A stretch of DNA of 64,000 bases from Elusimicrobiota bacterium (lineage in GTDB: Bacteria; Elusimicrobiota; Elusimicrobia; UBA1565; UBA9628). Shown in pieces: positions 14,584 through 63,932 of the stretch. The notes below the pieces were generated by a model, which was not told the origin of the DNA, ran no database searches, and was given only the letters and a program-made list of their open reading frames with translations. The stretch covers positions 7,150 through 71,149 of the forward strand of contig JBBTJN010000011.1 of the NCBI GenBank assembly GCA_038059415.1. The letters run 5' to 3'. The stretch's first letter is position 1. Every line of letters begins with the position of its first letter. The position numbers were made by a program, and so were the translations under genes.

Positions 14584-14587
<4 letters not shown>
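13352..14587 (-). CDS. Membrane-anchored YyaL-like thioredoxin-fold paralogue lacking the CxxC motif
   Basis: ATG at 14587 overlaps the upstream stop (ATGA). TM helix [36 protein letters not shown]...ERPDL aligns with [16 protein letters not shown]...ERPDV of the upstream gene. Confidence 0.6.
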
Positions 14588-16653
<2,066 letters not shown>

Positions 16654-42356: not shown

Positions 42357-42360
42357 TTGC

Positions 42361-44361: not shown

Positions 44362-44362
44362 G

Positions 44363-46018: not shown

Positions 46019-46038
46019 TATTTTGATGGTCCTTAGGC

Positions 46039-46587: not shown

Positions 46588-46640
46588 TTTACCGTTCTTG
46601 CCTTTTCAAATTTTTTTAAAAAAATAACGCGAAGTCTCTC

Positions 46641-46670
46641 AAAATATCAATTAGCGTTCGGACCTGTCAA
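46641..46670 (-). promoter_or_regulatory. Candidate promoter of the Rieske/cytochrome b operon
   Basis: The minus strand has TTGACA (complement of 46665-46670), an 18-nt spacer, then TATTTT (complement of 46641-46646). It sits in a strongly AT-rich spacer (TTATTTTTTTAAAAAAATTTG). Confidence 0.35.
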
Positions 46671-46704
46671 ACACGCGAGGCGGGCAAGCAAATCTTCACT
46701 CATG

Positions 46705-51277: not shown

Positions 51278-52516
51278 ATGAGCCCCCTCCCCCCCTCCTT
51301 CGTGATCCTCGCCGTTCTTCTCTCCTCCTCGGCCCACGCGCAGTTCTGCCCGCTCAACTCCGGCGACACCGTCCGAAAGATCGTGGCCTGCACGCCGGAA
51401 GTGACGACGAACGCCTGTCGCAAGCTCGCGCAAAGCGTGGGCTGCGCGGTCGTGCGCGAATTGCCTTCGATCAACGCAATCGTCGTCGAAATACCCGCCT
51501 TCCGTGCCGACGGCGCCGAGACCACGCTCAGGCGCGCGTTTCAAGTGGATTTTGTCGAAACCGATAAAATTATCAATTGGCTCAAGGCCGCAACCGTGGC
51601 GCCGCCGGCGCCGACCGCGCGTTTCGCCTTCGACGACGTCGCCCGCGACATCCTCAAACGAATGGCCGCCCTGAAGCCCGTCGCCGTCGCGGAGGGAGAA
51701 CAGCCGTGGGGCATCCGCCGCGTGAATGCCGCCGCCTCCTGGACCACGCCGCGCGGCCAGGGTCAGGGTTCGGCCGTCGCGATCATCGACACCGGCATCT
51801 CTCGGACGCATCCCGATTTGATCGGCGTCGTCATCGGCGGCTTCAACGCCCTCGACCCCAATAGGCCCGACGCGTGGGACGACGACGAGGGCCACGGCTC
51901 CCACGTCGCCGGCACGATCGCGGGCAAGCGCGACGGCAAAGGCGTCGTCGGAGTCGCACCTCTGGCCAAACTCTACGCGGTGAAGGTGCTCGACGCGAAC
52001 GGCAACGGCGGCTTCTCGAGCGTCATCGCCGGCATCGAGTGGGCCGCCAAACACGGCATCAAGGTCGCCAACATGAGCCTCGGCGCCGATGAGGGCAGCG
52101 AGGCGCTCAAACGCGCCGTCACGGCCGCGAACAAGGCCGGGCTCCTCATCGTCGCCGCGGCCGGGAACTCGGGCGGCTCCGTTGACTTCCCCGCCAACTA
52201 CCCGGAGACCATCGCCGTCGCCGCCTCCGACATCAAGAACAACGTCCCTGATTTCTCAAGCCGCGGGCCCGAGGTGGATTTTATCGCGCCCGGCGTGGAC
52301 GTGAAATCGGTCAAAATGGACGGCGGGTGGGTCGAGATGTCCGGAACCTCGATGGCGACCCCGCATGTGGCGGGCCTGGCCGCCCTCGCGGTCGCGCGCG
52401 GCGCGTCGACTCCTGCCGCGGTGCGCGCCGCGCTCAAGAAAGCGGCAACGCCACTTGCGGGCCTCGCGACGACCTTGCAGGGCATGGGCATGATCGACGC
52501 GGGCAATCTGCCTTAG
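51278..52516 (+). CDS. S8 family (subtilisin-like) serine peptidase, exported
   Basis: Asp/His/Ser triad motifs AIIDTGI, HGSHVAGTIAG and SGTSMATPHVAG, plus a signal-like N-terminus. Confidence 0.9.
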   Translation: MSPLPPSFVILAVLLSSSAHAQFCPLNSGDTVRKIVACTPEVTTNACRKLAQSVGCAVVRELPSINAIVVEIPAFRADGAETTLRRAFQVDFVETDKIINWLKAATVAPPAPTARFAFDDVARDILKRMAALKPVAVAEGEQPWGIRRVNAAASWTTPRGQGQGSAVAIIDTGISRTHPDLIGVVIGGFNALDPNRPDAWDDDEGHGSHVAGTIAGKRDGKGVVGVAPLAKLYAVKVLDANGNGGFSSVIAGIEWAAKHGIKVANMSLGADEGSEALKRAVTAANKAGLLIVAAAGNSGGSVDFPANYPETIAVAASDIKNNVPDFSSRGPEVDFIAPGVDVKSVKMDGGWVEMSGTSMATPHVAGLAALAVARGASTPAAVRAALKKAATPLAGLATTLQGMGMIDAGNLP

Positions 52517-52567
52517 AGAAACCCGCTGTGATGGCCTCCATTTCCTTAATATACTAGAATTCCAGGC

Positions 52568-53062
52568 ATGAACCGACGAGGATCGAAGACCGCCGCGTTC
52601 GCCGTTATCGTCGGGGTCGCCTTCGGCGGCCTGTTCGCCGTTCGTCACCTGAACAAGACGCGCGCCCGTCACGAGAGTGAGTGCCGCGCCCTGACCAAGG
52701 CCCTCGATAAGACCGTCCGCGCGCGCTCCCCCCGCTTCTTGGAGAGCATCGTCGAGCACCGCTATGATCGAACAGAAGGCCGCTGCCTCGCCGCGCTCGA
52801 GTACCATTACAAGCCTTGCGACGCCAAACTGCTCAAGAGGACTCCGTTGCTCTGCACCGGCCCCGACGCCGACGTCGCGATATACTCCTTCCACAACGCC
52901 GGCGCCAACCCGCTGTTCATCTGCGAGCGGTTCTACGCGACGGGCAAGGCCCGGTGCACCGAGTCGATGTACGGCGCCGACGGCAGACTCCTGTCCACCC
53001 GGGAATTCCCCCCCGATCGGTTCCCCGCCATTAAATCCGAACTCATCAACCCCAAGCCTTAA
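52568..53062 (+). CDS. Hypothetical N-terminally anchored Cys-rich protein
   Basis: 164-aa ORF with one TM helix (AAFAVIVGVAFGGLFAV) and six Cys in the soluble part. No recognisable family. Confidence 0.45.
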   Translation: MNRRGSKTAAFAVIVGVAFGGLFAVRHLNKTRARHESECRALTKALDKTVRARSPRFLESIVEHRYDRTEGRCLAALEYHYKPCDAKLLKRTPLLCTGPDADVAIYSFHNAGANPLFICERFYATGKARCTESMYGADGRLLSTREFPPDRFPAIKSELINPKP

Positions 53063-53121: not shown

Positions 53122-53130
53122 TGGTAGAAT
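53122..53130 (+). promoter_or_regulatory. Extended -10 element (TGgTAGAAT) 6 nt upstream of the enoyl reductase ATG
   Basis: The sequence is CATGGTAGAATAAAGGGATG. The hexamer TAGAAT lies at 53125-53130 and the ATG at 53137. There is no correctly spaced SD. Confidence 0.3.
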
Positions 53131-53136
53131 AAAGGG

Positions 53137-54102
53137 ATGGATCAGAAAAATACGCTGGATTTTCACGGTTCCGGCCTTTGGGCGGTCATCCTCGGCGGCT
53201 CGTCGGGATTCGGTCTAGCGACGGCAAAAAGGCTGGCACGCGCCGGTTTCAACATCCTCATCGGGCACAAGGACAAGGAAGGCACAGTCGAGACGGTGAT
53301 CAAGCCCCATTTCGACGAAATTCGAGCTTCGGGCGTCAACCTCATAACCCACAACATCAATTTGTTCGATGAGGACGCAAGAGGCGAACTCTTCGAAAGC
53401 ATCCAGACCAACTGCGGGCCCGGCAAGGTTCATCTATTCATGCAGTCCATCGCAGCCGGTTCCTGCCGTCTGATGATCGACGACAAGACTCCCGATTTCC
53501 GCGGCAAGGCGATCAAGGGCCTGGCCGAGGCGCTGGGTCTGCCTCCCGAGAAGGTCAAGGCAGCCGTCAACGCCGCGTTCCACGACAAGGGCTGCGACGC
53601 ATTGCACACGCTTGCCGATTCGCGAATTCCGTACCGCGAGGAGCTGCTGACCCAGGAAGATTTCGAGAAAACCATCTTCATGATGGGCTACGATTATTTG
53701 CTGTGGGGCCGCGAGCTGTGCAAGGAAGGCCTCCTCACCAAGGACGCCCGTTTGGTGGCCATGACGTCCGAAGGCAACGAGGTCGCGTGGAAGGGCTATG
53801 CCGCCGTTTCTGCCGCGAAGACCGCGCTGGAAGCCTCATGCCGCGCGATGGCCGTCGAGCTCGCGCCTTACGGCGTGTCCTCGTACATCATGCAGGCCGG
53901 CATCACCGACACGCCCGCCGGCAACGCGATCCCGAACTTCGACCTGATGAAGGCCCAGGCCCGCATCCGCAACCCGTTCCATCGGCTGACGACGCCCGAG
54001 GATATCGCCGAGGCCATCCTCGGCATCTGCGGACCCGCCTTGCGGTGGGTCAACGGTTCCATAATCCGCGCCGACGGCGGGGAAGCGATATCAGGCCTGT
54101 GA
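53137..54102 (+). CDS. Enoyl-[acyl-carrier-protein] reductase-like SDR (FabI/FabL-type Y-x6-K)
   Basis: Rossmann motif VILGGSSGFGLATAKRLA and WKGYAAVSAAKTALEA (Tyr-x6-Lys, as in FabI). An insertion is present around residues 100-170. Confidence 0.65.
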   Translation: MDQKNTLDFHGSGLWAVILGGSSGFGLATAKRLARAGFNILIGHKDKEGTVETVIKPHFDEIRASGVNLITHNINLFDEDARGELFESIQTNCGPGKVHLFMQSIAAGSCRLMIDDKTPDFRGKAIKGLAEALGLPPEKVKAAVNAAFHDKGCDALHTLADSRIPYREELLTQEDFEKTIFMMGYDYLLWGRELCKEGLLTKDARLVAMTSEGNEVAWKGYAAVSAAKTALEASCRAMAVELAPYGVSSYIMQAGITDTPAGNAIPNFDLMKAQARIRNPFHRLTTPEDIAEAILGICGPALRWVNGSIIRADGGEAISGL

Positions 54103-54151
54103 CCGAGCATAGCGGGAGAATGGTCGCTTCGAAAGCCGCAGGAAAGCGACC

Positions 54152-55162
54152 ATGAGCAACCCCTTCAACATCTTGGGAATGGGCTGGGCCCTTCCGAAAA
54201 ACGAAATCGACAACGACTTCCTGCACAAGGAAGTGGGCCTGAAGAAGACACCCGAATGGTGCCTCTCGCGCCTCGGCATCCTGAAGCGCTACTCGGTTCT
54301 ATCAAGGAAATACATCGCCAAGACGCACAACAAGGACCCTCTGCAGGCGATCATCCACGCCCGCGCCAACGGCGAGACGCCGGTATCCTTGGCGGTGCGC
54401 GCGGCGCAACGGGCGATGGCCCATTGCGGCGTAAAGCCCGCGAGGATCGGCATGGTCGTCTGCAACTGCGACCTGCCCTTCGATCTCGTGCCCGGCACCG
54501 CGAACTACATCGCCAAGGCGCTCGGCATCGGCTCCGGGCCGCACATGGACCTCAACACCGCGTGCTCCTCGTTTGCTCGTCATATGCTGTACCTGGGAGA
54601 TCTGAGCGACCGCGCGTTCCCCGAGTTCGTACTGACCGTGCAGACCGCCTGCTACACGACGCGCACCGACTACTCCCCCGAAAACTTCGACGGCTACATC
54701 TGGGGCGACGGCGCGTCAGCCCAGATATGCTCGCTTAAGCATAAGGGCCGCATCAAGGTGGAGCCTCTGGTGTTCGCGACCGACCCCCAGGGCTGCGACG
54801 ACGTGAAGGTGGACGCCACGAGGCACTTCTGGCAGGACGGCGCGAAGATCCGCGAGTTCTCGATAAGACGGACCGTCGAAATGTTCGAGCAGATCGCCGC
54901 GGCGAAGAAACTCTTCGCGGAGGATGTCTACACCGTCACTCACCAAGCGAATTTCGTGATGCAGGAAAGCATCCTCGGTCATCTGAATCTGCCGAAGGAA
55001 CGCCATATCAGCAATGTGCAAGTCCAAGGCAACATCGCCTCGGCCGGCATGCCCTCGGCCATCGCCCAGCATTTGGATAAATTGAAGAAGGGCGACCAAA
55101 TCGTGTACGCCGTCCTCGGCGCAGGTCTCGCGTGGGGCGGCGGCCATATGGAGGTGCAGTAA
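54152..55162 (+). CDS. 3-oxoacyl-ACP synthase III (KAS III / FabH-like)
   Basis: Cys/His/Asn triad contexts NTACSSFARH, VTHQANFVM and QGNIASAGMP. Confidence 0.85.
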   Translation: MSNPFNILGMGWALPKNEIDNDFLHKEVGLKKTPEWCLSRLGILKRYSVLSRKYIAKTHNKDPLQAIIHARANGETPVSLAVRAAQRAMAHCGVKPARIGMVVCNCDLPFDLVPGTANYIAKALGIGSGPHMDLNTACSSFARHMLYLGDLSDRAFPEFVLTVQTACYTTRTDYSPENFDGYIWGDGASAQICSLKHKGRIKVEPLVFATDPQGCDDVKVDATRHFWQDGAKIREFSIRRTVEMFEQIAAAKKLFAEDVYTVTHQANFVMQESILGHLNLPKERHISNVQVQGNIASAGMPSAIAQHLDKLKKGDQIVYAVLGAGLAWGGGHMEVQ

Positions 55163-55887
55163 TGCCCGATATCGCGGTCGTGACCGGCGCCTCGGGCGGC
55201 ATCGGCGCCGCGACGGCGATAATGATCCACGCAAGATCCGAAGGATGCCTCCAGGTCTGCCTACACTGCAATGGGAACAAGGCCGCGGCTCAGGCGCTTT
55301 CCAAGGATATCCCGAATTCGTTTGTCGTGCAGGCCGATCTGTCCGCGGCCGAAGGTCGTAAAGCTCTCTTGGACGCCGTGCTTTCCGCGGGAACCCCTTA
55401 TTGTTTGGTCAACAACGCCGGCATCGACCGTCCCCACGAGCCCGCATTGATGGTGACAGAAGAGGCGTACGACAAGATTATGGACACAAATCTGAGGGCG
55501 CCATTATTTCTTATGCGCGACTTCGCCAAAGAGATGGCGCGCAACGAGGCGGGCGTGATCGTCAACGTCTCGTCAGTGTTGGCGCGCAAAGCCGTCGTCG
55601 GCTCGGCCATCTATCGCGCCTCCAAGGCTGCGGTCGAGGCATTAACCCGGCAGTTCGCCTCGGAATTGGGTCCGAAAGGAGTGCGCGTCGTCGCGATCGC
55701 CCCCGGCTTCATCGAGACGAGCATGACCGCCGCCATCCCCGAGGATCAGCGCGCCGGCATCAAAAAAGACGTCGCTCTCGGCGCGTTCGGCGCGCCCGAA
55801 GCCATCGCCGAGACCGTCTGGCACGCGATCGAGAACCAATATCTGACGGGCGCCGTCATCGCGGTGGATGGAGGCATGGCGTTGTGA
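55162..55887 (+). CDS. 3-oxoacyl-ACP reductase (FabG-like SDR)
   Basis: The ATG at 55162 shares a nt with the upstream TAA (TAATG). Contains VVTGASGGIGAATA, NNAG and SAIYRASKAAVEAL (YxxxK). Confidence 0.85.
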   Translation: MPDIAVVTGASGGIGAATAIMIHARSEGCLQVCLHCNGNKAAAQALSKDIPNSFVVQADLSAAEGRKALLDAVLSAGTPYCLVNNAGIDRPHEPALMVTEEAYDKIMDTNLRAPLFLMRDFAKEMARNEAGVIVNVSSVLARKAVVGSAIYRASKAAVEALTRQFASELGPKGVRVVAIAPGFIETSMTAAIPEDQRAGIKKDVALGAFGAPEAIAETVWHAIENQYLTGAVIAVDGGMAL

Positions 55888-56375
55888 GCGATCTCACCGC
55901 CGCCGAGGTGCTCAAGCTGGTACCCCAACGTCCGCCGATGCGCTTCATCGATCAGATTGTCGAGATCGACAAGGAGCACGTGCTCACCAAGTACACCTGG
56001 AAGGACGCGGACTGCGCGGGGCATTTCCCGGGCAACCCCGTCGTGCCCGGCGTGAAGATGGTGGAGATGGCGGTCCAGACATCGGTCGTCGCCTGGGCGA
56101 TCTATCTCATGAGCGCCAGGGCCCGCGAAGAGCGCTTGTCGAGCATGGTCAACCTCTTCACCCACCTCGACCGGGGCTCCTTCAAGAAGATGGTGCGCCC
56201 CGGCGACACTCTCGCCTGCCGCGCGGCGTTCGGCAAGGACGGATTTTTCCGCGACGGGAAGCTCGTGGCCGAGGCCGAGATCAATTTCCTCGGCGGACCC
56301 AAAGACGGCGAGGCCGCGTTTACCGGCGTCGTGTCCGGACTCTGGATGTCGAAGGACTCGGAGAAACTGAAATGA
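55884..56375 (+). CDS. 3-hydroxyacyl-ACP dehydratase (FabZ/FabA-like hotdog fold)
   Basis: The GTG at 55884 overlaps the FabG-like stop (GTGA). LVPQRPPMRFIDQIVE...HFPGNPVVPGVKMVE is the FabZ-type active-site motif. Confidence 0.8.
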   Translation: MSDLTAAEVLKLVPQRPPMRFIDQIVEIDKEHVLTKYTWKDADCAGHFPGNPVVPGVKMVEMAVQTSVVAWAIYLMSARAREERLSSMVNLFTHLDRGSFKKMVRPGDTLACRAAFGKDGFFRDGKLVAEAEINFLGGPKDGEAAFTGVVSGLWMSKDSEKLK

Positions 56376-57691
56376 GCACCCGCTACCCGAAGCGCGTCGT
56401 CATCACCGGCATCGGCGCCGTGGCCCCGAACGGCCTCGGCATCGCAAACTACCACGCCGCCTTGCTGGCCGGCAGGTCCGGCATCTCCCACCATGAAGAT
56501 CTCGCGACGCTCAACTTCGCCTGCCAGATCGGCGGCAAGCCCCCCGTCGGCCCGGATGAAGCCGAGGCCCTGCTCTCCGGTCCCGACCTAGCCAAGCTCA
56601 ACGAGGCGATGGTGTACGCGACGATGGCCGCCGTCGAGTGCGCGCGGATGTCCGGCGTAAACGTCGACTTAAAGAAGGGCTATAGCGACACTCCCGTGGA
56701 TTGGACGACGGGCGCGATCATCGGCTGCGGCATCGGCGGTATGGACACGATGTGCGAGGACATGGGGCCGGTGCTCGCGGCGGCGAGCGCGCAGGAACCG
56801 GGCATGGGCGTGCGCCCCATGGGAACGGATATCGTCCCCAAGATCATGGAGAGCTCGGTGTCGGTCGCCGTCGGAAAATTCCTGGGCTTGGGCGGGCAAA
56901 CGACGACGAACTCGTCGGCCTGCAACACGGGAACGGAAGCTATTTTCGAGGCCTTCAAACATATTCAGCTCGGCTTCTGCGATTCGATGTATGCCGGCGG
57001 AGCCGAAGGCACCCACCCCGGCACCTGGTCGGGCTTCGACGCGATGCGTGACGTGCTCTGCTCCAGGTTCAACGACCGCCCTGAGAAGGGCTCCCAACCG
57101 ATGGGCGCGGGCGCCTGCGGTTTCGTCCCGTCCGGCGGCGCGGGCGTATTGCGCCTGGAAACGTTGGAGTCGGCGCGCAAACGCGGCGCCAAGATTTTGT
57201 GCGAAGTCGTCGCGACCTACGTTAACTCCGGCGGCCAACGCGACGGCGGCACGATGACCTTCCCCAACCCGGACGGGGTCATGCGCTGCATAAGACAAGT
57301 CATCAAGGATGGAGATTTGGATCCCCGCCGGATTTCTTTAATCAACGGCCATTTGACGTCGACGGGCGCGGATCCGAAGGAAGTGGGCAGCTGGATCAAG
57401 GCTCTGGAACTGCCGCTGGAGAAGTTTCCTCTCATCCAGTCCACGAAATCCATGATCGGGCATGCGCTCGGCGCGGCGGGCGCTTTAGAATGCGTCGCCG
57501 TCGTCGACCAGATCGTCAACAGTTACGTGCATCCCTCGATCAACAGCGAGGACGTTCACCCCCAGATTCCCATCGGCGACAGCATCCCGCATCAGATGGT
57601 GAGAAAAGAGCTCGAGTACGTCATCAAAGCCAGTTTCGGCTTTGGCGACGTAAACGGATGCGTCCTCTTCAAACGCTGGGACGGAAAATAA
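56372..57691 (+). CDS. 3-oxoacyl-ACP synthase I/II type (Cys-His-His)
   Basis: ATG at 56372 (ATGA overlap). Contains RVVITGIGAVAPNG, NSSACNTGTEAI, NGHLTSTGADPKE and STKSMIGHALGAAGALE. Confidence 0.85.
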   Translation: MSTRYPKRVVITGIGAVAPNGLGIANYHAALLAGRSGISHHEDLATLNFACQIGGKPPVGPDEAEALLSGPDLAKLNEAMVYATMAAVECARMSGVNVDLKKGYSDTPVDWTTGAIIGCGIGGMDTMCEDMGPVLAAASAQEPGMGVRPMGTDIVPKIMESSVSVAVGKFLGLGGQTTTNSSACNTGTEAIFEAFKHIQLGFCDSMYAGGAEGTHPGTWSGFDAMRDVLCSRFNDRPEKGSQPMGAGACGFVPSGGAGVLRLETLESARKRGAKILCEVVATYVNSGGQRDGGTMTFPNPDGVMRCIRQVIKDGDLDPRRISLINGHLTSTGADPKEVGSWIKALELPLEKFPLIQSTKSMIGHALGAAGALECVAVVDQIVNSYVHPSINSEDVHPQIPIGDSIPHQMVRKELEYVIKASFGFGDVNGCVLFKRWDGK

Positions 57692-57725
57692 TAGAATCGC
57701 AGTTATCCTCGGAGGAACGAAGAAA

Positions 57726-58628
57726 ATGGCATTCATGCGAAAACAGTCGGTTGTCGAGGCGGTCGACGTGAGTACTCTCACCGCGGAAGAGGCCGAGAAG
57801 CGCATCACGGCGGGCGTCAAGAAATACGCCACCAACGAGGCCAACTACGCCGTGGCCGACGCGAATACACCCTACCTCGGGCACATCGTGGGCATGGGCA
57901 TCGAGTCCTCGAACCTCGCCGACATCACGATGTCCATTGAGCGCCAGTTCCTCACCAAGATGACCACAAAGGTTCCCCTGTCCGAAGGCTCCTCCGAATA
58001 CAAGTTCAAGGCGGGAGAACTCGGCAAGCTTCGCATCCTGGACGGCCAGGACGCTTTAGCCGCCACGCCGGGACTGTCGGTCAAGATGCTCATGGACCTC
58101 GGCCATCTACCGAGGAACGACGCCTATCTCGAGAAGGTCATGTCGTTTGCCTACGTGATGGCGACGGGCGACGGCTGGAAGATGGCCGACGCGCTCAAGA
58201 AGATGGCGGGCAAGGCCGATAAGTTGGCCGGTGCCGAACGAGGAGAAGCCATCGTCAACATGAAGACCCTCGTAGCACAGGCCAAGGACTACGATCTCCT
58301 TCTCGCCGACGCGGCCAAGCTCGCGGCCTCCAAGGCGAAGGCCTACGCCAACGACAAGGGCGGTTTCGACGCGCTGACCAGCGAGTTGAACCTGACCCTC
58401 GACAAGATCAAGGGCGTTTCCTCCGACGGCGATGCCGCGGCGCTCGCCAAGCTGCGCGGCGAGGAAGCCGAAATTCGCACGCGTCTCAAGATGAGCGCGG
58501 CCAAGCTTCGCGTCTCGCAGGAAGTCTCCGAGGCCGCCGGCAAGCGCCGCTCAATCGAGGGCAAGAAGGTCGACGAGGTTCGCGCCGCCCTTCAGGAAGC
58601 CGTTACGCTCGCCGAGAAGCTCTCCTAA
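57726..58628 (+). CDS. Hypothetical 300-aa protein: ACP-like N-terminal segment plus a long Ala/Lys-rich helical tail
   Basis: Residues 54-75, IVGMGIESSNLADITMSIERQF, align position-for-position with the ACP helix II region [20 protein letters not shown]. Ser61 falls at the phosphopantetheine site. Residues ~150-300 are A/K/E/L-rich and predicted helical. Confidence 0.5.
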   Translation: MAFMRKQSVVEAVDVSTLTAEEAEKRITAGVKKYATNEANYAVADANTPYLGHIVGMGIESSNLADITMSIERQFLTKMTTKVPLSEGSSEYKFKAGELGKLRILDGQDALAATPGLSVKMLMDLGHLPRNDAYLEKVMSFAYVMATGDGWKMADALKKMAGKADKLAGAERGEAIVNMKTLVAQAKDYDLLLADAAKLAASKAKAYANDKGGFDALTSELNLTLDKIKGVSSDGDAAALAKLRGEEAEIRTRLKMSAAKLRVSQEVSEAAGKRRSIEGKKVDEVRAALQEAVTLAEKLS

Positions 58629-58630
58629 CG

Positions 58631-60040
58631 ATGCCGCTGGATGCGGAGGAAGTCAAAGCCCTCCGCTTCCAGTGGCGCTTGAGCCGCGCGCTCGTGGTGC
58701 TCGTGTCGCTTGTGGTCACCGCGATCGCGCGGTTTCATTTCCAGTACCGCCTCGACGAGGACATCGACGAGTTGCGCGCGGACATATGGACCAAGCTCGA
58801 CGCGCACGACGGCCCCGTCATCTGGGCCGCCAACCACCTGACGCTCATCGACAGCTTCCTCGTCTATTGGGCGATCTTCCCCGTCAGCCGCCTCCTCGAT
58901 GAGCGGCGCATCCCTTGGTCCACGCCCGAGTACACGAATTACTACAGGCTCGGCGGGCCGGTGCAAAGCGCCCTCATCCGCGGCCTGCTCTATCTGTGCC
59001 GCTGCATCCCGTTCCTTCGGGGCGGGGAAGACGCGGCGTCTGAAATGTGGCGACGGAAGGCCTTCGACAAGTGCGTATGGGTTCTCAAAGAGGGCGGCGC
59101 CGTGTTCGTTTATCCGGAAGCCGGACGCTCGCGCTCGGGCTGGCTCGAGCCTCGGCGCCCGAAGGACTTCCTCGGCAAGTTGGCCATCGAGGTCCCTGCC
59201 TCGAAATTCCTTTGCGTGTATCTGCGTTCCGACCGCCAGATCTCGACGACCGCCTGCCCGCCGCGTGGCGACCGTCTACGCGTCGTGGCCGATCTTATCT
59301 CGGGCGTGCTCCCCGGCGAGACGAATCCCCGCGACATCAGCCAGCGCCTGTTCAACCGGCTCGCCGAGATGCAGCAGGAGTGGTGGAAGGGCTCCGAAAT
59401 GGCGCGCAACTGTGCTGGCAACGACATCGTAGACCTCAAGACGCCGCTGCTGCGCGAGAATTTCTCCGACGACCTGACCGAGGCCGATCAGGAGTGGCTC
59501 GAACGTCACCTGACAAAGAAGGAACTCGCCTATCTCCCCGAACAAGGGCCGACCAATCTCTTCCGCTGCTTCTGGCGCTTCTTCTGCGCGAAGGAAGCCT
59601 GCCACAAGGCGCTGGGCCGCGCCGTGATCGTGGTCCCCAACGGCGCGTTTCACGAGATCGAAATAGACCTTTTCCGCCGCAGGGCGACGCACATCCCGAG
59701 CGGCCTCCAACTCGACATCCGCTTCACCGACGACGACGAGGAGAAGCTCCATTGCGTCGCGGTCCTGCGCGGCGGCTACATCGGCGACGAGGAGACTGCG
59801 GGTGATATCCTCTGGACCGTGGGCGAGGTCCCGGCGGGAACCTCTGCCGGCGCCTTCGTCCGGGACTTAGCGCTCGACATGATCGCCTCGTCCAACGACG
59901 AGATCGCCACCGCCTCGCGCCTGGCCCTCACCGAAAATTCCGGCCTTCCCGGCGTGCTGTGGCGCGGTGCTCTCCAAGACTGGAGCCTGTCTCTGTCCCA
60001 CTCCGGCCGATTCGCGGCCGCCAGCTTCATGATCTCGTGA
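58631..60040 (+). CDS. Fusion protein: PlsC/LPLAT-type acyltransferase plus 4'-phosphopantetheinyl transferase
   Basis: The N-terminal half has AANHLTLID (NHx4D) and VYPEAGRSRSG (motif III). The C-terminal half has GNDIVDL, FCAKEACHKALG and SLSHSGRFAAA, typical of AcpS/Sfp-type PPTases. Confidence 0.7.
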   Translation: MPLDAEEVKALRFQWRLSRALVVLVSLVVTAIARFHFQYRLDEDIDELRADIWTKLDAHDGPVIWAANHLTLIDSFLVYWAIFPVSRLLDERRIPWSTPEYTNYYRLGGPVQSALIRGLLYLCRCIPFLRGGEDAASEMWRRKAFDKCVWVLKEGGAVFVYPEAGRSRSGWLEPRRPKDFLGKLAIEVPASKFLCVYLRSDRQISTTACPPRGDRLRVVADLISGVLPGETNPRDISQRLFNRLAEMQQEWWKGSEMARNCAGNDIVDLKTPLLRENFSDDLTEADQEWLERHLTKKELAYLPEQGPTNLFRCFWRFFCAKEACHKALGRAVIVVPNGAFHEIEIDLFRRRATHIPSGLQLDIRFTDDDEEKLHCVAVLRGGYIGDEETAGDILWTVGEVPAGTSAGAFVRDLALDMIASSNDEIATASRLALTENSGLPGVLWRGALQDWSLSLSHSGRFAAASFMIS

Positions 60041-60050
60041 GGAGAATCGC

Positions 60051-60983
60051 ATGAGCGATGCCATTTGCGCGCTGTTCGCCGGCCAGTCGGTTCAGGAGAC
60101 GGGCATGGGCGTCGAGTTGCTGAGAAACCCCGCCGCCCGCGCCGTCATCGATAGGCTGAAGCCCTCGCTCGGCGCCGATCTCGAGACTTTGCTGACGACG
60201 ATGCCCGATGAGTCCTTGGCGCTCACCTTCAACGCCCAACGCGCGATCCATGCCTCGCATGTCGCGCACTGGTTCGCCTACAAGTCGGCTCATCCCGGCA
60301 TCAAGCTCTCCGGCGCCGTCGGTCACTCGATGGGCGTGGTCGCCGCCCTGGTCGCCGCCGAAGCTCTGCTCCTCGAGGACTCCGGCCGCTTCATTGCCGC
60401 GCGCGCGAAGGCGTTCTCCGACTGCTGCAAGGCCTTCACCGAGCCGATGGGACTGGCCGCCGTCTCGGCGGACGATTTCAACGACGTCGTCCAATCCGCG
60501 GACGAGGTGCCCGGCGTCTGCGTCGCGTTGTGGAACACGCGCGGTCGCGGCACGCTCGGCGGGACGCTCGCCGCGCTCGAGGCCTACGCGGCCAAAGCCC
60601 GGGCCGAGGACTGGCCCGTGAAAATCAAGATTCTCAAGGTTGAGGGACCCTATCACACCGCGGCCTTCGCTCCCGCCAAAGACGCCCTCGCCGCAACGCT
60701 CGCGGCCCTCGAGGTGAAGGCGCCCAAGGTCCCCGTGTTTATGGGAACCTCGGGAAAGGCCGAGAACGACCCGGCGAGGATCAAGGCGCTGCTCGGCGAG
60801 CAGACCGTCGCCTGCGAGCGGCACCTCGACGCGGTGCGAGCGGCGCACGCGGCCGGCTGCCGTACCTTCGTCGAGGCGTCCTTCAAGCCCCAGCCTGTGA
60901 CCTGGCTGCCCGACCAGCTAGAGGCGGGTTCCTACAAGGCCATCGCGCTCACCACGGCGGAAATCACCGCGTCGACGAGATAG
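60051..60983 (+). CDS. Malonyl-CoA:ACP transacylase-like acyltransferase (FabD family)
   Basis: Contains FAGQSVQETGMG, GHSMGVVAAL (GHSxG nucleophile elbow) and YHTAAF. Confidence 0.8.
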   Translation: MSDAICALFAGQSVQETGMGVELLRNPAARAVIDRLKPSLGADLETLLTTMPDESLALTFNAQRAIHASHVAHWFAYKSAHPGIKLSGAVGHSMGVVAALVAAEALLLEDSGRFIAARAKAFSDCCKAFTEPMGLAAVSADDFNDVVQSADEVPGVCVALWNTRGRGTLGGTLAALEAYAAKARAEDWPVKIKILKVEGPYHTAAFAPAKDALAATLAALEVKAPKVPVFMGTSGKAENDPARIKALLGEQTVACERHLDAVRAAHAAGCRTFVEASFKPQPVTWLPDQLEAGSYKAIALTTAEITASTR

Positions 60984-61024: not shown

Positions 61025-62365
61025 ATGCCCACCCGGCGCTACCCCGAGACCGGTGTTTTCTACCGCGCGCTCGATCGAGAGTTCCCCATGATCGTACGCG
61101 GCGAGGGTTGTTGGCTTGTCGACGACAAGGGCCGGCGTTACCTGGACGCCTGCGGCGGAGCCTACGTCGCGAACCTGGGGCACGGCGTTTGCGAGATCGC
61201 TGACGCGGTCGCCGAGCAAGTCCGCAAGGTCGCCTATGTCAATGGGACGGCCTTTACCAACGAGCCCGCCGAGGAACTGGCCGCAGAGTTGCGCACGCTC
61301 AACCCCCAAGGCCTCGACTTCGCCTACTTCCTTTCTTCCGGCTCGGAGGCCGTCGAGGCCGCGCTCAAGCTCGCCCGCCAGCACTGGATCGAGTCGGGAA
61401 AGCCCGGCAAGCACAAGATCATCGCGCGCGCGCCCGGCTATCACGGCAACACCTTGCTGGCGCTCTCCGCGTCAGCACGCGAAGAGTACAAGAAAATGTT
61501 CGCTCACTGGCTCGTGCCCGTGACCATGATTCCCGCTCCATACCCCTACCGTTGCATGCCGGACTCTCCCGCGATGACGGCCTCGGCCCTGGAGGACGCC
61601 ATCCTCAAAGAGGGTCCGGACTCGGTCGCCGCCTTCATCGCCGAGCCGGTCGGCGGCTCCTCGACCGGCGCGTCGGCGCCGCCGAAGGACTACTTCAAGC
61701 GGGTGAGAGATATCTGCGACAAGCATAGCGTGCTGTTTGTCGCAGACGAGGTCTTGTCCGGTTCCGGCCGCACCGGCAAATGGACGGCTCTCGAACACTT
61801 CGACGCGGCCCCGGACATCATGACGCTCGGCAAAGGTTTGTCGGGGGGTTATGTGCCGCTGTCCGCCGTCCTCGCGACAAGAAAAGTGATCGACCCGATC
61901 GCCAATGGATCGGGAACATTCAAACACGCCCAGACTTTTTCCCACTCGCCCGCCATTTGCGCCGCAGGGTTGGCCGCCGTCCGTCATATCAAGAGAAACA
62001 ACCTCGTCGACCGCTGCTCCAAGATGGGCGCCGCGCTTCAGCGCAAAATCTCCGTTTTGCTCGACCTTCCGTCCGTCGGCGACGTCCGCGGCCTCGGTCT
62101 TTTGGCGGGGATAGAGTTCGTCGCCGACAAAAAGACGAAGGCGCCGTTTCCCCGCGCGCTTAAATTCGCCGAGACCTTCGTCGCCTCGGCCCATAACGCC
62201 GGGCTCCTCGTCTGGCCCAACACCGGGCACGCCGACGGCGAGAACGGCGACCTCGTCGTGCTCGCCCCCCCATTCATCGTGACCGAGGCGGAGATCGACG
62301 AGATCGTCGTCCGCTTCAAGACCGCGCTCGAACGCACACTGGAGAAACTTCATGTCCACCGCTAA
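61025..62365 (+). CDS. Class III PLP-dependent aminotransferase
   Basis: Contains SGSEAVEAALKLAR, FIAEPVGGS, FVADEVLSGSGRTGKW and TLGKGLSGGYVPLSAV (PLP Lys). Confidence 0.85.
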   Translation: MPTRRYPETGVFYRALDREFPMIVRGEGCWLVDDKGRRYLDACGGAYVANLGHGVCEIADAVAEQVRKVAYVNGTAFTNEPAEELAAELRTLNPQGLDFAYFLSSGSEAVEAALKLARQHWIESGKPGKHKIIARAPGYHGNTLLALSASAREEYKKMFAHWLVPVTMIPAPYPYRCMPDSPAMTASALEDAILKEGPDSVAAFIAEPVGGSSTGASAPPKDYFKRVRDICDKHSVLFVADEVLSGSGRTGKWTALEHFDAAPDIMTLGKGLSGGYVPLSAVLATRKVIDPIANGSGTFKHAQTFSHSPAICAAGLAAVRHIKRNNLVDRCSKMGAALQRKISVLLDLPSVGDVRGLGLLAGIEFVADKKTKAPFPRALKFAETFVASAHNAGLLVWPNTGHADGENGDLVVLAPPFIVTEAEIDEIVVRFKTALERTLEKLHVHR

Positions 62366-63932
62366 CGCCGCTCCCGCCGCGAAGATCACCTACACCTCCG
62401 TGAACACGGACATGACCGCGTTCCACCGTTCTTTCGACGAGGCCCTGACGCTCGTGCGCGGCAAGGCCGGAAAGGAGCACCCGCTCTGGATCGACGGCAA
62501 GGCCGTGAAGTCGGCTTCCCCCCTTCTCGTCGACCTCTCGCCCATCGATACATCCTTCGTCCTCGGAAAGTTCGCGGCCTCGACCGCCGACCATGTGGAC
62601 CAGGCCGTCAAAGCCGCCCATCGCGAGCAGAAGCTCTGGCGCGCTCTCACGTGGCAGGAGCGCGTGAAGACGATGCGCAAGGCCGCCGTCGCCATACGCG
62701 AACGCAAGTTCGAGATCGCCGCCGTGATGAGCCTGGAAGTGGGCAAGAGCCGCCTGGAGGCCATGGGCGACGCCGAGGAGTCGGCCGACCTCATCGAATA
62801 TTACGCCAAGAACGTCGAGGACAATAACGGCTACATCGTGCCGCTGGGCAAGCTCCTGCCCAACGAAAACACGCGCTCGGTGCTGCGCCCCTTCGGGGTG
62901 TTTGTTTGCATCGCGCCCTTCAACTTCCCCATGGCGCTCTCGACCGGGATGTCCGCAGCGGCCCTGCTCGCCGGCAACGGCGTCGTCTACAAGCCCGCCC
63001 AGGACGCGCCCTGGACCGGCCTCATGCTCTACGAGTGCTACATGGCCGCGGGCATCCCGGCCGGGCTGTTCAATTTCGTGACGGGCCTGGGCTCGGTGAT
63101 CGGAGACGCGCTGTGGAAGAACCCGGGCGTCGACGGCATCGTGTTCACCGGCTCCAAGGAAATCGGAATGCGCATGGTCAAAGAGTTCTCCTCGGCCTAC
63201 CCCAAGCCCGCGCTCATGGAGCTGGGCGGCAAGAACCCGACCTACGTTTCCGAAACCGCCAACCTCGACGACGCCGCCTCGGGCGTCATGAAGTCCGCCT
63301 TCGGTCTGCAGGGACAGAAGTGTTCCGCCTGCTCGCGCGTGTACGTCCACGAGGAGATCTATGACGCCTTCGTGGCCAAGCTCGTCGAAAAGAGCAAGGC
63401 CATCGTCAGCGGCGACCCCACGCAGAAGGACGTATACTTCGGGCCGGTCATCAACGCCAAGTCGGCCAAGACCTTCGATCAAGCCATCGAGTCCGCGAAG
63501 AAGGGCGGCAAGGTTTTGCTCGGCGGAGAGCGCCTCAAGGGAGGGCTCTTCGACAAGGGGCACTTCTGCGCCGCGACCATCGTGGAGCTTCCTCTCGACC
63601 ATGAAATCTTCATGCGAGAACTGTTCGTGCCTATTCTCGCGGTGGGAAAGGTCAAGGACATGGATCAGGCCATCACGCAATCCAACCGTGCGGAGTACGG
63701 CCTGACCGCGGGAATCTTTACAGCCAGTCAAGAAGAGATACAGCGGTATTTCGATGAGATCGAGTCCGGCGTCTGCTACGCCAACCGCCCCTCGGGCGCG
63801 ACCACCGGCGCGTGGCCCGGCGTGCAGTCCTTCTGCGGCTGGAAGGGCTCCGGCTCGACTGGCAAGGGAGGCTGCGGGCCCTATTACGTCACGCAGTTCA
63901 TGCGCGAACAATCGCGCACCATCATGGAATGA
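62352..63932 (+). CDS. Aldehyde dehydrogenase, L-glutamate gamma-semialdehyde (P5C) dehydrogenase-like
   Basis: Contains MELGGKNP, FGLQGQKCSACSR (catalytic Cys) and EYGLTAGIFT. At 526 aa the length matches RocA/PruA-type enzymes. Confidence 0.8.
   Translation: MSTANAAPAAKITYTSVNTDMTAFHRSFDEALTLVRGKAGKEHPLWIDGKAVKSASPLLVDLSPIDTSFVLGKFAASTADHVDQAVKAAHREQKLWRALTWQERVKTMRKAAVAIRERKFEIAAVMSLEVGKSRLEAMGDAEESADLIEYYAKNVEDNNGYIVPLGKLLPNENTRSVLRPFGVFVCIAPFNFPMALSTGMSAAALLAGNGVVYKPAQDAPWTGLMLYECYMAAGIPAGLFNFVTGLGSVIGDALWKNPGVDGIVFTGSKEIGMRMVKEFSSAYPKPALMELGGKNPTYVSETANLDDAASGVMKSAFGLQGQKCSACSRVYVHEEIYDAFVAKLVEKSKAIVSGDPTQKDVYFGPVINAKSAKTFDQAIESAKKGGKVLLGGERLKGGLFDKGHFCAATIVELPLDHEIFMRELFVPILAVGKVKDMDQAITQSNRAEYGLTAGIFTASQEEIQRYFDEIESGVCYANRPSGATTGAWPGVQSFCGWKGSGSTGKGGCGPYYVTQFMREQSRTIME

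Follow-up and report, generated by a model that had tools for sequence, protein, structure and literature searches.

A conserved type II fatty acid synthase-like gene cluster in Elusimicrobiota with a putative 300-residue acyl carrier protein and an acyltransferase–phosphopantetheinyl transferase fusion

A 64-kb stretch of DNA from a groundwater Elusimicrobiota bacterium, referred to here as the window, contains eight co-directional genes (ORF calls, positions 53137–60983, forward strand) with the functions expected of a type II fatty acid synthase (FAS II). The explanation that we favour, and hold to be reasonably probable without regarding it as settled, is that the cluster specifies a dedicated, self-contained FAS II-like pathway which operates on a novel type of acyl carrier protein (ACP), termed X below, most likely alongside the ordinary FAS II of the cell.

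Organization of the cluster

The genes are arranged in the order enoyl reductase (ER, g1), initiating ketosynthase (KS3, g2), ketoreductase (KR, g3), dehydratase (DH, g4), elongating ketosynthase (KS, g5), carrier (X, g6), LPLAT-type acyltransferase fused to a 4′-phosphopantetheinyl transferase (PPTase; g7) and FabD-like acyltransferase (AT, g8). Neighbouring genes overlap by up to 4 nt or are separated by at most 49 nt, with overlapping stop and start codons at the g2/g3 (TAATG at 55160), g3/g4 (GTGA at 55884) and g4/g5 (ATGA at 56372) junctions. This tight same-strand packing is as described in the original prediction, with matching ORFs and junctions; the cluster was also said there to end in the fusion, which is indeed present but penultimate, g8 being the last gene.

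A −10-like hexamer, TAGAAT (53125–53130, forward strand), lies 6 nt 5′ of the g1 ATG and is, by inference only, a putative promoter that would give a leaderless or near-leaderless transcript and mark the 5′ boundary of the unit. The same arrangement (TAGAAT-N6/7-ATG) is found ahead of g0 (52568) and of an aminotransferase gene (61025). An internal TAGAAT (57692–57697, forward strand), 28 nt 5′ of g6 and ahead of a ribosome-binding site (GGAGG), is possibly an extra promoter for the carrier gene, an inference based on nothing more than a consensus match.

Profile-HMM searches against Pfam and NCBIfam, together with alignments to FabH and FabF structures, uphold all of the domain assignments proposed earlier. 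The product of g1 (53137–54102; this and all following genes of the cluster are on the forward strand) is a 321-aa enoyl reductase, an SDR of the FabL/FabI/FabV type with a Y-x6-K motif (adh_short_C2, PF13561, 3e-30; Enoyl_reductase, PF12241, 1e-10). Its best NCBIfam model is FabL (102 bits, cut-off 328), its closest PDB sequence is Bacillus subtilis FabL (3oic, 4e-15), and it is 85–95% identical among close relatives. The KAS III-like initiating ketosynthase encoded by g2 (54152–55162, 336 aa; ACP_syn_III_C, PF08541, 3e-15; 101 bits to TIGR00747, cut-off 292) retains the Cys/His/Asn triad, as ACS/HQAN/GN, when aligned to the FabH structure 8vd9. It is followed by a FabG-like 3-ketoacyl reductase with the S...YxxxK signature (g3, 55162–55887, 241 aa; adh_short, PF00106, 2e-43; 173 bits to TIGR01830, cut-off 298) and by a FabZ/ApeI-like hot-dog dehydratase carrying HFPGNPVVPGV (g4, 55884–56375, 163 aa; FabA, PF07977, 4e-10; 64 bits to TIGR01750, cut-off 155), the orthologues of which are annotated with the ApeI-like family PF22818. 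The KAS I/II-type elongating ketosynthase (g5, 56372–57691, 439 aa; ketoacyl-synt, PF00109, 2e-24; Ketoacyl-synt_C, PF02801, 2.5e-20; 268 bits to TIGR03150, cut-off 494) is closest in the PDB to Thermus thermophilus FabF (190 bits), with which its catalytic Cys, His and His align. The FabD-like malonyl transacylase (g8, 60051–60983, 310 aa) displays the GQ...GHSMG...R...H pattern (Acyl_transf_1, PF00698, 4e-28; 113 bits to TIGR00128, cut-off 261); in many relatives its gene has moved 1–8 kb downstream.

The fusion protein g7 (58631–60040) consists of two recognizable halves. The N-terminal one (58631–59380) is an LPLAT/AGPAT acyltransferase with H69-x4-D74 and YPEAGRS motifs, matching Acyltransferase PF01553 over residues 60–188, which include NHLTLID (H69/D74), at 31.5 bits (gathering threshold 23); the NHx4D motif is kept in all 113 family members. 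It is preceded by a hydrophobic N-terminal segment with a hydropathy peak at about residues 17–35. The domain matches no characterised subfamily in NCBIfam and no sequence in the PDB. The C-terminal half (59381–60040) is a PPTase with AcpS-like motif order (ACPS, PF01648, residues 263–354, 36.2 bits, gathering threshold 25), in which GNDIVDL, FCAKEACHKA and SLSHSG are kept in 102–109 of the 113 members. Four loci (L069, L071, L072 and L074) have a standalone PPTase at the position of g7. We found no published description of an LPLAT domain fused to a PPTase.

Conservation and distribution

The same order of genes was recovered from about 120 contigs of independent assemblies, almost all from Elusimicrobiota, with 66 loci complete and 52 truncated. 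These colinear loci span X identities of 41–100% and GC contents of 43–75%, a recurrence far beyond chance. Whether relatives keep the eight-gene neighbourhood had been left to be checked, and its order proves to be strongly conserved. MAGs that bear the labels Acidobacteriota and Planctomycetota also contain the cluster, as does a bacterium of 43% GC whose off-loading genes differ; in such 43%-GC distant relatives a thioester reductase and an aldehyde-decarbonylase-like protein replace the LPLAT. Carrier, PPTase, KS, KR, DH, ER and AT form a core that behaves as a portable module, the off-loading enzyme of which differs by lineage, and its patchy occurrence among phyla is what an accessory module typically shows. 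Against the dedicated-system reading stand four loci from 50%-GC Elusimicrobiota (L050, L051, L052 and L054), where only X, the LPLAT–PPTase fusion and AT lie within 10 kb and the elongation enzymes are located elsewhere or shared with another FAS. The architecture had not been matched to any described pathway, and our literature search likewise gave no pathway or paper with such an architecture.

Possible relationship to type III polyketide synthases

In Azotobacter, acyl chains pass from ArsA/ArsD to the type III polyketide synthases (PKSs) ArsB/ArsC, and the original prediction speculated that the cluster might similarly feed a type III PKS. On that reading the cluster would mainly serve to build long acyl chains on X, which would go straight to the PKS as starters and, with a methyltransferase and an FAD-dependent oxidoreductase, end up in alkylresorcinol or alkylquinone phenolic lipids; we regard this as unlikely without ruling it out. 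A possibly associated module of this kind, identified with Pfam, lies outside the operon on the reverse strand (25746–28785): type III PKS (27655–28785), methyltransferase (26945–~27640) and FAD-dependent oxidoreductase (25746–26981). Judged by its sequence, this trio is a predicted alkylresorcinol operon of the srs/hid type. Operons of this composition produce alkylresorcinols and use long-chain acyl starters (PMC10896814).

The proposal gains partial support from a close relative (loci L079 and L092; g7 78% identical), in which the three genes directly precede the cluster on the same strand, so that the order T3PKS-MT-FAD-ER-KS3-KR-DH-KS-X-LPLAT/PPT-AT runs in one direction with 0–40 nt between neighbouring genes; the trio of the window is 60/49/47% identical to that of L079 (tblastn). 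In L023 a distinct type III PKS paralogue ends ~90 nt 5′ of the ER gene, and in L011 the methyltransferase and oxidoreductase genes with a PKS remnant, a decayed copy, are situated 1.5 kb upstream of the cluster. However, such adjacency is restricted to about three lineages among ~60 loci with upstream sequence, and even in L079 the ER gene still has its own TATAAT box. In the window itself the trio is 24 kb from the cluster, on the opposite strand and beyond more than 20 unrelated genes, and a distance of 440 kb separates them in the complete genome CP096137.1. Furthermore, in Elusimicrobiota it is the LPLAT rather than a PKS that is universally conserved as the off-loader of the cluster, and ordinary acyl-CoAs serve PKSs of the Srs and Hid types. 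Compared with arsABCD of Azotobacter vinelandii and the srsABC/hidABC-type operons (PMC10896814, PMC4824345), the likeness consists in the trio present in the window and in loci L079/L092 and L023, where a dedicated FAS adjoins a type III PKS module; the differences are that the Azotobacter FAS (ArsA/ArsD) is of type I, whereas the one here is of type II and its atypical carrier is free-standing, that PKS adjacency is exceptional, and that the cluster has an LPLAT off-loader of its own.

A dedicated or a housekeeping system?

The cluster could instead be the housekeeping FAS II in an odd order, X having replaced AcpP, or acpP lying elsewhere, and g7 being a fused PlsC–AcpS. Such an origin would account for the full set of FAS II activities with a PPTase and a PlsC-family domain, and for identities of 65–95% in ER, KS and X across many free-living Elusimicrobiota; nor were further fab genes seen in the sequences examined, which are cluster neighbourhoods only. 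We nevertheless consider it improbable. The Fab-like proteins of the cluster all remain far below the NCBIfam equivalog cut-offs, reaching 18–58% of them, whereas the housekeeping proteins hemA, PstA, PstB, PstS and PhoU, also encoded in the window, exceed the cut-offs of their own models. For this reason the cluster is probably a dedicated second system beside the housekeeping FAS II, although the evidence is indirect and a separate FAS II or AcpP remains unproven. An unconserved order, with genes that are ordinary fab orthologues, would have refuted the original prediction; instead the order is kept and the scores are sub-threshold. The X family comprises just 28 clusters among 1.84 billion representatives, and with detection in 70 of 185,579 species genomes it does not characterise the phylum as a whole. 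Loci from further phyla and GC classes combine the module with reductive off-loading or FAAL priming, as would be expected of an accessory pathway. Finally, LpxA, LpxD and PlsX normally rely on canonical acyl-ACP, a need that also counts against the housekeeping reading.

Relative to canonical FAS II (FabH, FabD, FabG, FabZ, FabI/L/V, FabF, AcpP, AcpS and PlsC), the cluster shares the seven catalytic activities and their catalytic residues, a discrete protein for each step, a PPTase and a PlsC-family acyltransferase. It differs in its gene order, in its low equivalog scores, in the fusion of PPTase with LPLAT and in its carrier, a protein of 300 residues in which the ACP fold has a hairpin inserted into it and is joined to a basic helical bundle, and in which ES(S/A) replaces DSL.

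The putative carrier protein X

Gene g6 (57726–58628) encodes X, a 300-aa putative carrier with an ACP-fold N-domain and a C-terminal helical bundle. No sequence-profile method recognises it as an ACP: it has no match in Pfam or NCBIfam, a profile search of PDB sequences finds nothing, and hhalign, while setting S61 of X on Ser36 of AcpP, does so with E = 0.23 only. The fold was assigned from an AlphaFold2 model of the N-terminal 143 residues (N-domain, 1–~140; pLDDT 81, pTM 0.74), for which the alignment was shallow (23 sequences). Among the top 50 Foldseek matches of this model in the PDB, nearly all are carrier proteins (TM(target) 0.70–0.80), including mitochondrial, Thermotoga maritima, Escherichia coli, T. 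thermophilus and Staphylococcus aureus ACPs and an anammox-specific ACP (7auf); probabilities are 0.96–1.0 for the top 29, but E-values are only 0.016–0.3. Ser61 (codon 57906–57908), the sole invariant serine, is kept down to 22–33% identity within the context GMGIE-S-SN, of which G-M-G-I-E-S is invariant in the family, and in the model it caps the N-terminus of a helix (61–74) equivalent to ACP helix II. A β-hairpin of ~27 residues (75–101) is inserted after this helix, and residues 141–299 form a basic five-helix bundle (~160 aa, pI 9.2).

X could conceivably be no carrier but a helical protein with a structural, regulatory or lipid-binding role, the enzymes then using a normal AcpP and the g7 PPTase serving it as well. 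The absence of a significant PP-binding profile match is compatible with this, as are the share of the bundle, which makes up more than half of the protein and has weak structural neighbours among amphipathic bundles of the AhlC/ClyA type, and the basic character of the whole protein (pI 8.4), unlike that of acidic ACPs. There is, though, little to recommend it beyond these points: the N-domain resembles carriers almost exclusively, its invariant serine occupies the helix-II position, and residues 1–75 are acidic (pI 4.9). Moreover, a PPTase gene directly follows that of X in all 70 loci, fused to LPLAT in 66 and standalone in four distant ones, hence even without the LPLAT. The first 77 loci contain no other carrier gene. 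An ACP HMM run over 12,226 ORFs from the window and 77 related loci (~1.2 Mb) detected no canonical ACP (best E-value 2; 32 in the window), while in a leave-one-out control it recovered every left-out ACP (E = 4e-26 to 9e-7). The earlier claims that the cluster lacks a free-standing canonical ACP and that the 300-aa protein is the carrier are therefore both supported; X is most likely the acyl carrier of the cluster.

Specialised ACPs deviating from the usual minimal size of ~80 aa are represented in unusual lipid pathways by Mycobacterium tuberculosis AcpM, with its C-terminal tail, and by the anammox-specific ACP (7auf); X differs from both in its 160-aa folded helical bundle, in the hairpin after helix II and in escaping PP-binding profiles.

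Comparison with other lipid and pigment clusters

A reading as an aryl-polyene (APE) or flexirubin cluster, or as another type II PKS-like cluster for a pigment or secondary metabolite, can be practically dismissed, because the FAS II-like character, the ApeI/ApeP-like Pfam matches of the dehydratase, the presence of an LPLAT, which APE clusters also include, and a weakly FlxB-like KR (128 bits against a cut-off of 340) are outweighed by an enoyl reductase that is the best-conserved gene, a FabD, a single KS without a chain-length-factor partner, the lack in Elusimicrobiota loci of small ACPs and of an aryl-starter ligase, thioesterase, methyltransferase, glycosyltransferase and MMPL/LolA export set, and the failure of every NCBIfam APE or flexirubin model to reach its cut-off.

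In rhizobia, acpXL-fabZXL-fabF2XL-fabF1XL-adh-lpxXL provides the very-long-chain acyl group of lipid A. As in the dedicated pathway proposed here, a private carrier, own elongation enzymes and a terminal acyltransferase deliver a special acyl group to one membrane lipid in parallel to the housekeeping FAS. AcpXL, however, has the usual small ACP form, LpxXL is not an LPLAT but a member of the lipid A acyltransferase family, and PPTase, ER, FabD and KAS III are missing from that cluster. LPLAT is coupled to carrier-handling machinery elsewhere too, as an AGPAT domain inside myxobacterial PUFA synthases and fused to acyl-ACP synthetase in E. coli Aas, carrier-bound acyl groups being transferred to glycerolipid; in g7, by contrast, the fusion partner is a PPTase, and the synthase is a dissociated type II system, not a megasynthase.

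Proposed pathway

In the pathway that we propose, the PPTase half of g7 would attach 4′-phosphopantetheine to Ser61 of X, as inferred from the ACP fold, the invariant serine and the universal gene adjacency, and FabD-like g8 is inferred to load malonate onto holo-X. Domain content and catalytic residues suggest that KAS III (g2) would start the chain from an acyl-CoA primer, and that KR (g3), dehydratase (g4), enoyl reductase (g1) and KAS I/II (g5) would carry out reductive elongation to a saturated chain of unknown length. The membrane-associated LPLAT half of g7 may then move the finished acyl group from X to a lyso-lipid-type membrane acceptor, the identity of which is unknown. More speculatively, the basic C-terminal bundle of X probably docks the carrier at the membrane or at g7, in which case synthesis would be channelled to the g7 acyltransferase alone. 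Off-loading would fall to the LPLAT in Elusimicrobiota and to the thioester reductase with the aldehyde-decarbonylase-like protein in the 43%-GC lineage; in a few relatives a type III PKS operon adjoins the module. With the product still unknown, the combination of a conserved operon, an undescribed 300-residue carrier and a PPTase–acyltransferase fusion points to an uncharacterised lipid pathway.

Organization of the gene cluster

The cluster consists of eight co-directional open reading frames (g1–g8; 53137–60983, forward strand), with spacing that ranges from a 4-nt overlap to a gap of 49 nt. The TAATG, GTGA and ATGA overlaps listed in the original prediction (at 55160, 55884 and 56372) were confirmed by reading of the sequence, and the enzymes that it had assigned were borne out by Pfam and NCBIfam domains together with catalytic motifs. 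The genes encode, in order, an SDR enoyl reductase (g1; PF13561 and PF12241, with FabL, FabI and FabV as the nearest models), a KAS III (g2), a FabG-like ketoreductase (g3), a FabZ/ApeI-like hot-dog dehydratase (g4), a KAS I/II (g5), protein X (g6), which belongs to no Pfam or NCBIfam family, a fusion of an LPLAT domain (residues 60–188, with H69-x4-D74) to a PPTase domain (residues 263–354; g7), and a FabD-like transacylase (g8). Only the last place in the cluster, previously given to the fusion, has to be corrected, as the fusion gene is the penultimate one. The Cys/His/Asn residues of g2 and the Cys/His/His residues of g5 align onto the sequences of the FabH and FabF crystal structures, and the Y-x6-K, S/YxxxK, HFPGNP and GHSMG motifs were located by direct reading of the cluster proteins. 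The full set of elongation-cycle activities is present, each as a discrete protein with intact catalytic residues, and the cluster as a whole is not covered by any Pfam or NCBIfam family model. The sequence derives from an uncultivated groundwater member of the Elusimicrobiota, and proteins identical to its own are encoded both on contigs from the Hainich aquifer and in NCBI MAGs carrying AAB268 locus tags.

The hexamer TAGAAT is found at 53125 (forward strand), 6 nt upstream of the g1 start codon (53137), at 61013 (forward strand), 6 nt upstream of the ATG of the aminotransferase gene that follows the cluster (61025), and 28 nt upstream of X, where a GGAGG site comes after it. These are consensus matches only; judged from the sequence, their placement is consistent with g1–g8 forming a transcription unit of their own, possibly with an extra boost for the carrier gene. 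Further copies are located at 52555 (forward strand) before g0, the gene upstream of g1 (start at 52568), at 40796 (reverse strand) before an ATG at about 40783, and possibly at 16720 (reverse strand). The hexamer is separated from the start codon by 5–7 nt at g0, g1, the aminotransferase gene and the ATG near 40783, a spacing suggesting that leaderless or near-leaderless transcripts may be common in the source organism.

Conservation of the gene order

Loci carrying X-type clusters in other genomes and metagenomes (designated by L and a number) were surveyed. Seventy were retrieved from 185,579 species genomes and 45 from JGI metagenomes, the set amounting to 125 with look-ups included. The complete order of enoyl reductase, KAS III, ketoreductase, dehydratase, KAS I/II, X and LPLAT–PPTase on one strand was found in 66 of the 125 loci, with the FabD-like gene further downstream in 51 of the 66. 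Another 52 loci are colinear and interrupted by contig ends, and a handful are variants. Among the first 77 loci, a PPTase domain follows X in every one of the 70 that extend at least 1.5 kb downstream of X; it is fused to the LPLAT domain in 66 of these and standalone in the four most distant ones (L069, L071, L072 and L074). No description of this gene order was found in the literature.

Four Elusimicrobia loci with a GC content of about 50% (L050, L051, L052 and L054) contain only X, the LPLAT–PPTase fusion and the transacylase, without any gene for enoyl reductase, KAS III, ketoreductase, dehydratase or KAS I/II within 10 kb upstream. This clade has either a split cluster or a carrier on which other FAS enzymes act.

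Protein X, a putative acyl carrier

Protein X (300 aa; 57726–58628) is annotated by both NCBI and JGI as 'hypothetical protein'. No significant PP-binding match (PF00550 or equivalent) was obtained for it in Pfam or NCBIfam, and a profile search of PDB sequences returned only noise. Alignment of X to a profile of four ACPs with hhalign placed GIESSNLADITMSIERQF on AcpP GADSLDTVELVMALEEEF and S61 on Ser36, albeit with an E-value of only 0.23. The family is narrow: when 1.84 billion representatives were scanned exhaustively with HMMER, 28 clusters were recovered, and a word-indexed search returned 241 sequences, the best 120 of which are 67–100% identical. Among the matches listed, X is more tightly conserved than the g7 fusion (67–100% versus 55–93% identity). 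Alignments of the family contain an invariant block, NTP(Y/F)LGxIxGMGIE-S-(S/A)N(L)ADITMSIERQFL, and Ser61 is the only invariant serine of X, retained also in members at 22–33% identity. The motif around this serine is E-S-(S/A), not D-S-L.

The AlphaFold2 model of full-length X (pLDDT 77) has a small domain at its N-terminus and five long helices thereafter (residues 141–299), and Foldseek searches with it returned only non-specific helical bundles (AhlC, SMC arms; E≥0.025). The N-terminal domain (residues 1–143) was then modelled alone with a more diverse alignment of 23 sequences, resulting in a pLDDT of 81.4 and a pTM of 0.74. The model contains helices at residues 20–34, 38–42, 61–74, 108–111, 115–124 and 132–137 and a beta-hairpin at 75–101. 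Nearly all of the top 50 Foldseek hits of this model in the PDB were carrier proteins (ACP or PCP chains), including the mitochondrial ACP of complex I, the ACPs of T. maritima, E. coli, T. thermophilus, S. aureus and H. pylori, several PCPs and an anammox ACP. The target-normalised TM-scores of the ACP matches were 0.70–0.80 and the probabilities of the top 29 were 0.96–1.0, although the E-values remained modest (0.016–0.3). In the model Ser61 is the first residue of helix 61–74, the counterpart of ACP helix II. Residues 1–75 are acidic (pI 4.9) and the C-terminal bundle is basic (pI 9.2). Since Pfam, NCBIfam, the PDB profile search and hhalign gave no ACP-fold signal, the signal comes from the structural route alone.

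In order to look for a conventional carrier, an HMM was built from four ACP sequences; in control searches a left-out ACP was recovered at E-values of 4e-26 to 9e-7. Among 12,226 open reading frames from the window and 77 related loci, this model matched no small acidic AcpP (∼75–100 aa, DSL), the best E-value being 2. Because a PPTase is always present, a recognisable ACP never is, and X is always encoded directly upstream of the PPTase, the best explanation is that X is the substrate of the latter. Therefore, X is very probably the acyl carrier of the cluster, with the qualification that its ACP fold is taken from a predicted structure and that its phosphopantetheinylation and acyl carriage are inferred.

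The LPLAT–PPTase fusion

Both halves of g7 are supported by family models. The LPLAT domain matches PF01553 (31.5 bits, gathering score 23) and contains NHLTLID and YPEAGRS; across 113 homologues, NHx4D is present in all and the block III motif (F/Y)PEG(T)R in 107. None of the NCBIfam models of characterised LPLAT subfamilies (PlsC, OlsA and others) matched it. The PPTase domain matches PF01648 (36.2 bits, gathering score 25), and its motifs GxD and (F/W)xxKE(A/S)xxK are found in 102 and 109 of the 113 homologues, respectively. The standalone orthologue of L071 spans the whole ACPS model. Residues 17–35 of g7 form a hydrophobic N-terminal segment. No sequence relatives of g7 were found in the PDB at E≤1, and no fusion of a PPTase to an LPLAT was found described in the literature.

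Distant variants and product exits

The KAS III gene is missing from L071, L072 and L121, and in L071 and L121 genes for an AMP-binding ligase and a methyltransferase are located upstream. In L071 and L072 the transacylase gene is followed by those for a thioester reductase (NAD_binding_4) and a di-iron protein resembling aldehyde decarbonylase (PF11266, 65 bits; TIGR04059, 64 against a cut-off of 223). The complete L071 array (3041–14324) thus reads ligase, methyltransferase, enoyl reductase, ketoreductase, dehydratase, KAS I/II, X, PPTase, transacylase, reductase and decarbonylase-like protein. Going by gene content, arrays of this type may represent an aldehyde- or alkane-forming pathway outside cyanobacteria that operates on the same atypical carrier. 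L071 itself belongs to an uncultured bacterium (∼43% GC) and is situated on a 3 Mb contig.

In the clade of L069, the cluster is followed by genes for an MGDG-synthase-like glycosyltransferase, MacB/FtsX permeases and a LolA-like protein. The L069 glycosyltransferase (MGDG/diglucosyl-DAG-synthase-like; 13597–14694, reverse strand) is encoded about 1 kb from the cluster, with an ABC ATPase gene also nearby, and a glycosyltransferase of the same kind is encoded in the window at 41205–42428 (reverse strand), within about 11 kb of the cluster. Formation or export of a glycolipid may be tied to the pathway.

An extra gene for a 376-aa protein with two FabA-like hot-dog domains (NF003509, 196 bits) occurs in 14 loci (L029, at 6305–7435, and L021, L022, L031, L035, L044, L049, L053, L065, L066, L074, L093, L096 and L111); its point of insertion in L029 and in the majority of the other loci lies between the KAS III and ketoreductase genes. 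Because of this insertion some lineages may add cis-unsaturation: judging from the domains, the protein may act as a dehydratase/isomerase and lead to unsaturated products there.

Relation to the type III PKS

The window also encodes a type III PKS (27655–28785), which heads a three-gene operon on the reverse strand together with a methyltransferase (26945 to about 27640, masked by a longer forward-strand open reading frame at 27159–27614) and an FAD-dependent oxidoreductase (25746–26981). Such a trio is known as the srs/hid-type alkylresorcinol module (PMC10896814). The product of the window operon (25746–28785) is probably an alkylresorcinol or an alkylquinone. In both the window and L079, the operon is in the vicinity of respiratory-chain genes.

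The original prediction had speculated that the cluster hands acyl chains to this PKS in the manner of the Ars systems, and the neighbourhoods lend the idea support in a few loci only. In the close relative represented by L079 and L092, which has both flanks in common with the window, the trio is contiguous with the cluster, lying directly upstream of the enoyl reductase gene on the same strand, and in L023 a different type III PKS paralogue occupies that position. L011 has intact methyltransferase and FAD genes (1624–3600; 74% and 71% identical to those of the window) 1.5 kb upstream of the cluster and a PKS remnant of about 24 residues, an apparent case of gene decay. In the window, however, the trio lies 24 kb from the cluster on the opposite strand, with UPF0182, pst/phoU, heme and cytochrome bc genes and those for a two-component system and a glycosyltransferase in between; about 55 other loci have no PKS neighbour, and 440 kb separate the trio from the cluster in the complete genome CP096137.1. 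Because this evidence is mixed, we retain the hand-off as a live but secondary hypothesis, and consider it unlikely to be the core function.

Housekeeping or dedicated pathway

The chemistry of the cluster is that of ordinary type II FAS. Scores against NCBIfam equivalog models were far below the cut-offs (FabF 268/494, FabD 113/261, FabZ 64/155, FabH 101/292, FabG 173/298, FabL 102/328 and FabI 62/337), so that the Fab-like proteins reach 18–58% of them and fail the orthologue criterion. General divergence of the lineage does not account for this, since HemA, PstA, PstB, PstS and PhoU of the window score above their own equivalog cut-offs and CtaD nearly does. The top PDB scores were likewise low (g5, 190 bits to FabF; g2, 79 bits to FabH). 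The module is patchily distributed: about 70 species genomes were found to carry it, almost all of them from free-living Elusimicrobiota, the few remaining MAGs being labelled Acidobacteriota or Planctomycetota or left unclassified, and the GC content of the loci ranges from 43 to 75%. The modularity of the accessory genes in the distant versions is typical of specialised lipid pathways. Taken together, the scores below cut-off, the patchy spread and the changing accessory genes favour a dedicated system.

A second fab set was not found in the flanks of the 125 loci (up to 10 kb on either side of the matched gene), neither fab nor ACP entries appear in the supplements of a paper on groundwater Elusimicrobia, and a search for literature on lipid synthesis in Elusimicrobia yielded nothing relevant. 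We nevertheless think it likely that a canonical FAS II and AcpP co-exist with the cluster, on indirect evidence only, as no whole genome was read. We regard it as very improbable that X has taken over entirely from AcpP in these Elusimicrobiota.

Comparison with known systems

The rhizobial AcpXL system, with its private carrier, private elongation enzymes and private acyltransferase, resembles the cluster in its logic, as do the PUFA synthases of myxobacteria with their terminal AGPAT domain. The Ars systems employ multidomain type I FAS proteins (ArsA/ArsD) and direct transfer from ACP to PKS, whereas the enzymes described here form a dissociated type II system. In the literature, we found no ACP fold that combines a hairpin insertion with a helical-bundle domain of 160 residues. 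Membership in the PUFA, ole and AcpXL families was rejected. Aryl polyene and flexirubin clusters are characterised by the lack of an enoyl reductase, a KS and chain-length-factor pair, small ACPs, a ligase for the aryl starter and export genes; they are ruled out by the presence and conservation of the enoyl reductase, the single KS, the lack of a small ACP and the lack of a ligase or exporter in the Elusimicrobiota loci.

Flanking genes

The cluster is directly followed by genes for a class III aminotransferase and an aldehyde dehydrogenase (61025–63932). They were not accepted as cluster members: the TAGAAT-N6-ATG start is their own, they accompany a minority of loci and their matches are to generic amine catabolism. 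The set also occurs at L023, L038, L073, L088 and L092, in several relatives followed by a second class III aminotransferase; its sequence matches suggest a unit for amine or polyamine catabolism, and it is not conserved across the family.

Directly upstream (51278–53062) are the genes for a secreted S8 subtilase and a 164-aa protein. The subtilase recurs upstream even in clades at 50–55% identity, and the Cys-rich, membrane-anchored 164-aa protein, which has no family match, does so in closer relatives (upstream recurrence: L005, L012, L016, L040, L056, L058, L060–L062, L073, L083 and L085). Both carry signal or anchor sequences, are probably extracytoplasmic and were rejected as catalytic parts.

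Elsewhere in the window, three large consecutive reverse-strand open reading frames (585–6591; 609, 828 and 514 aa) with high GC3 matched nothing in Pfam at E≤1e-4. The window also contains a complete operon for an aa3-type cytochrome c oxidase (COX2, COX1, COX3, COX4 and CtaA; 6895–13330) and genes for cytochrome b/c, CbiX and HemA (42976–48875); the source lineage is an aerobic respirer, consistent with the literature on groundwater Elusimicrobia.

Proposed mechanism and implications

The domain set, catalytic residues, fold prediction and synteny documented here form the basis of the following scheme, the reaction steps of which are inferred. The PPTase half of g7 would convert apo-X to holo-X at Ser61, and g8 would load malonate. 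Priming by g2 and elongation by g3, g4, g1 and g5 would yield a saturated chain, which the LPLAT half of g7 would transfer to an acceptor of the lyso-lipid type. More speculatively, the basic helical bundle of X may dock on the membrane or on g7 and thereby channel the product. If this scheme is confirmed, the fusion of PPTase and LPLAT would suggest that carrier activation and product delivery take place on one membrane-bound enzyme.

At its broadest, our hypothesis is that X is the founder of a new ACP class, in which an ACP fold, a beta-hairpin and a basic helical-bundle anchor tether an entire type II FAS either to the membrane or to the off-loading enzyme. The core of carrier, PPTase and FAS would then be a horizontally mobile cassette with LPLAT, reductase plus ADO-like enzyme, or type III PKS as alternative exits, making undescribed lipid classes in uncultivated phyla. 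We put this forward tentatively, as a possibility that we do not hold to be probable.

Few small proteins are as conserved or as thoroughly studied as ACPs, and it is mainly by way of PP-binding domains that annotation pipelines recognise lipid and polyketide pathways; a carrier unseen by sequence profiles would leave the whole pathway hidden. If confirmed, X would be a carrier protein of a new architectural class, in which the docking domain is built in, and g7 would be the first PPTase–LPLAT fusion. The compact eight-gene cassette would be transferable to other hosts and provide a defined acyl chain independently of host FAS. Confirmation would also be relevant to whether alkylresorcinol or alkylquinone synthesis has a dedicated supply of acyl chains and to whether there is a non-cyanobacterial route to alkanes. 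For the free-living Elusimicrobiota, of which we know no cultured representatives, it would provide a concrete handle on their membrane lipids.
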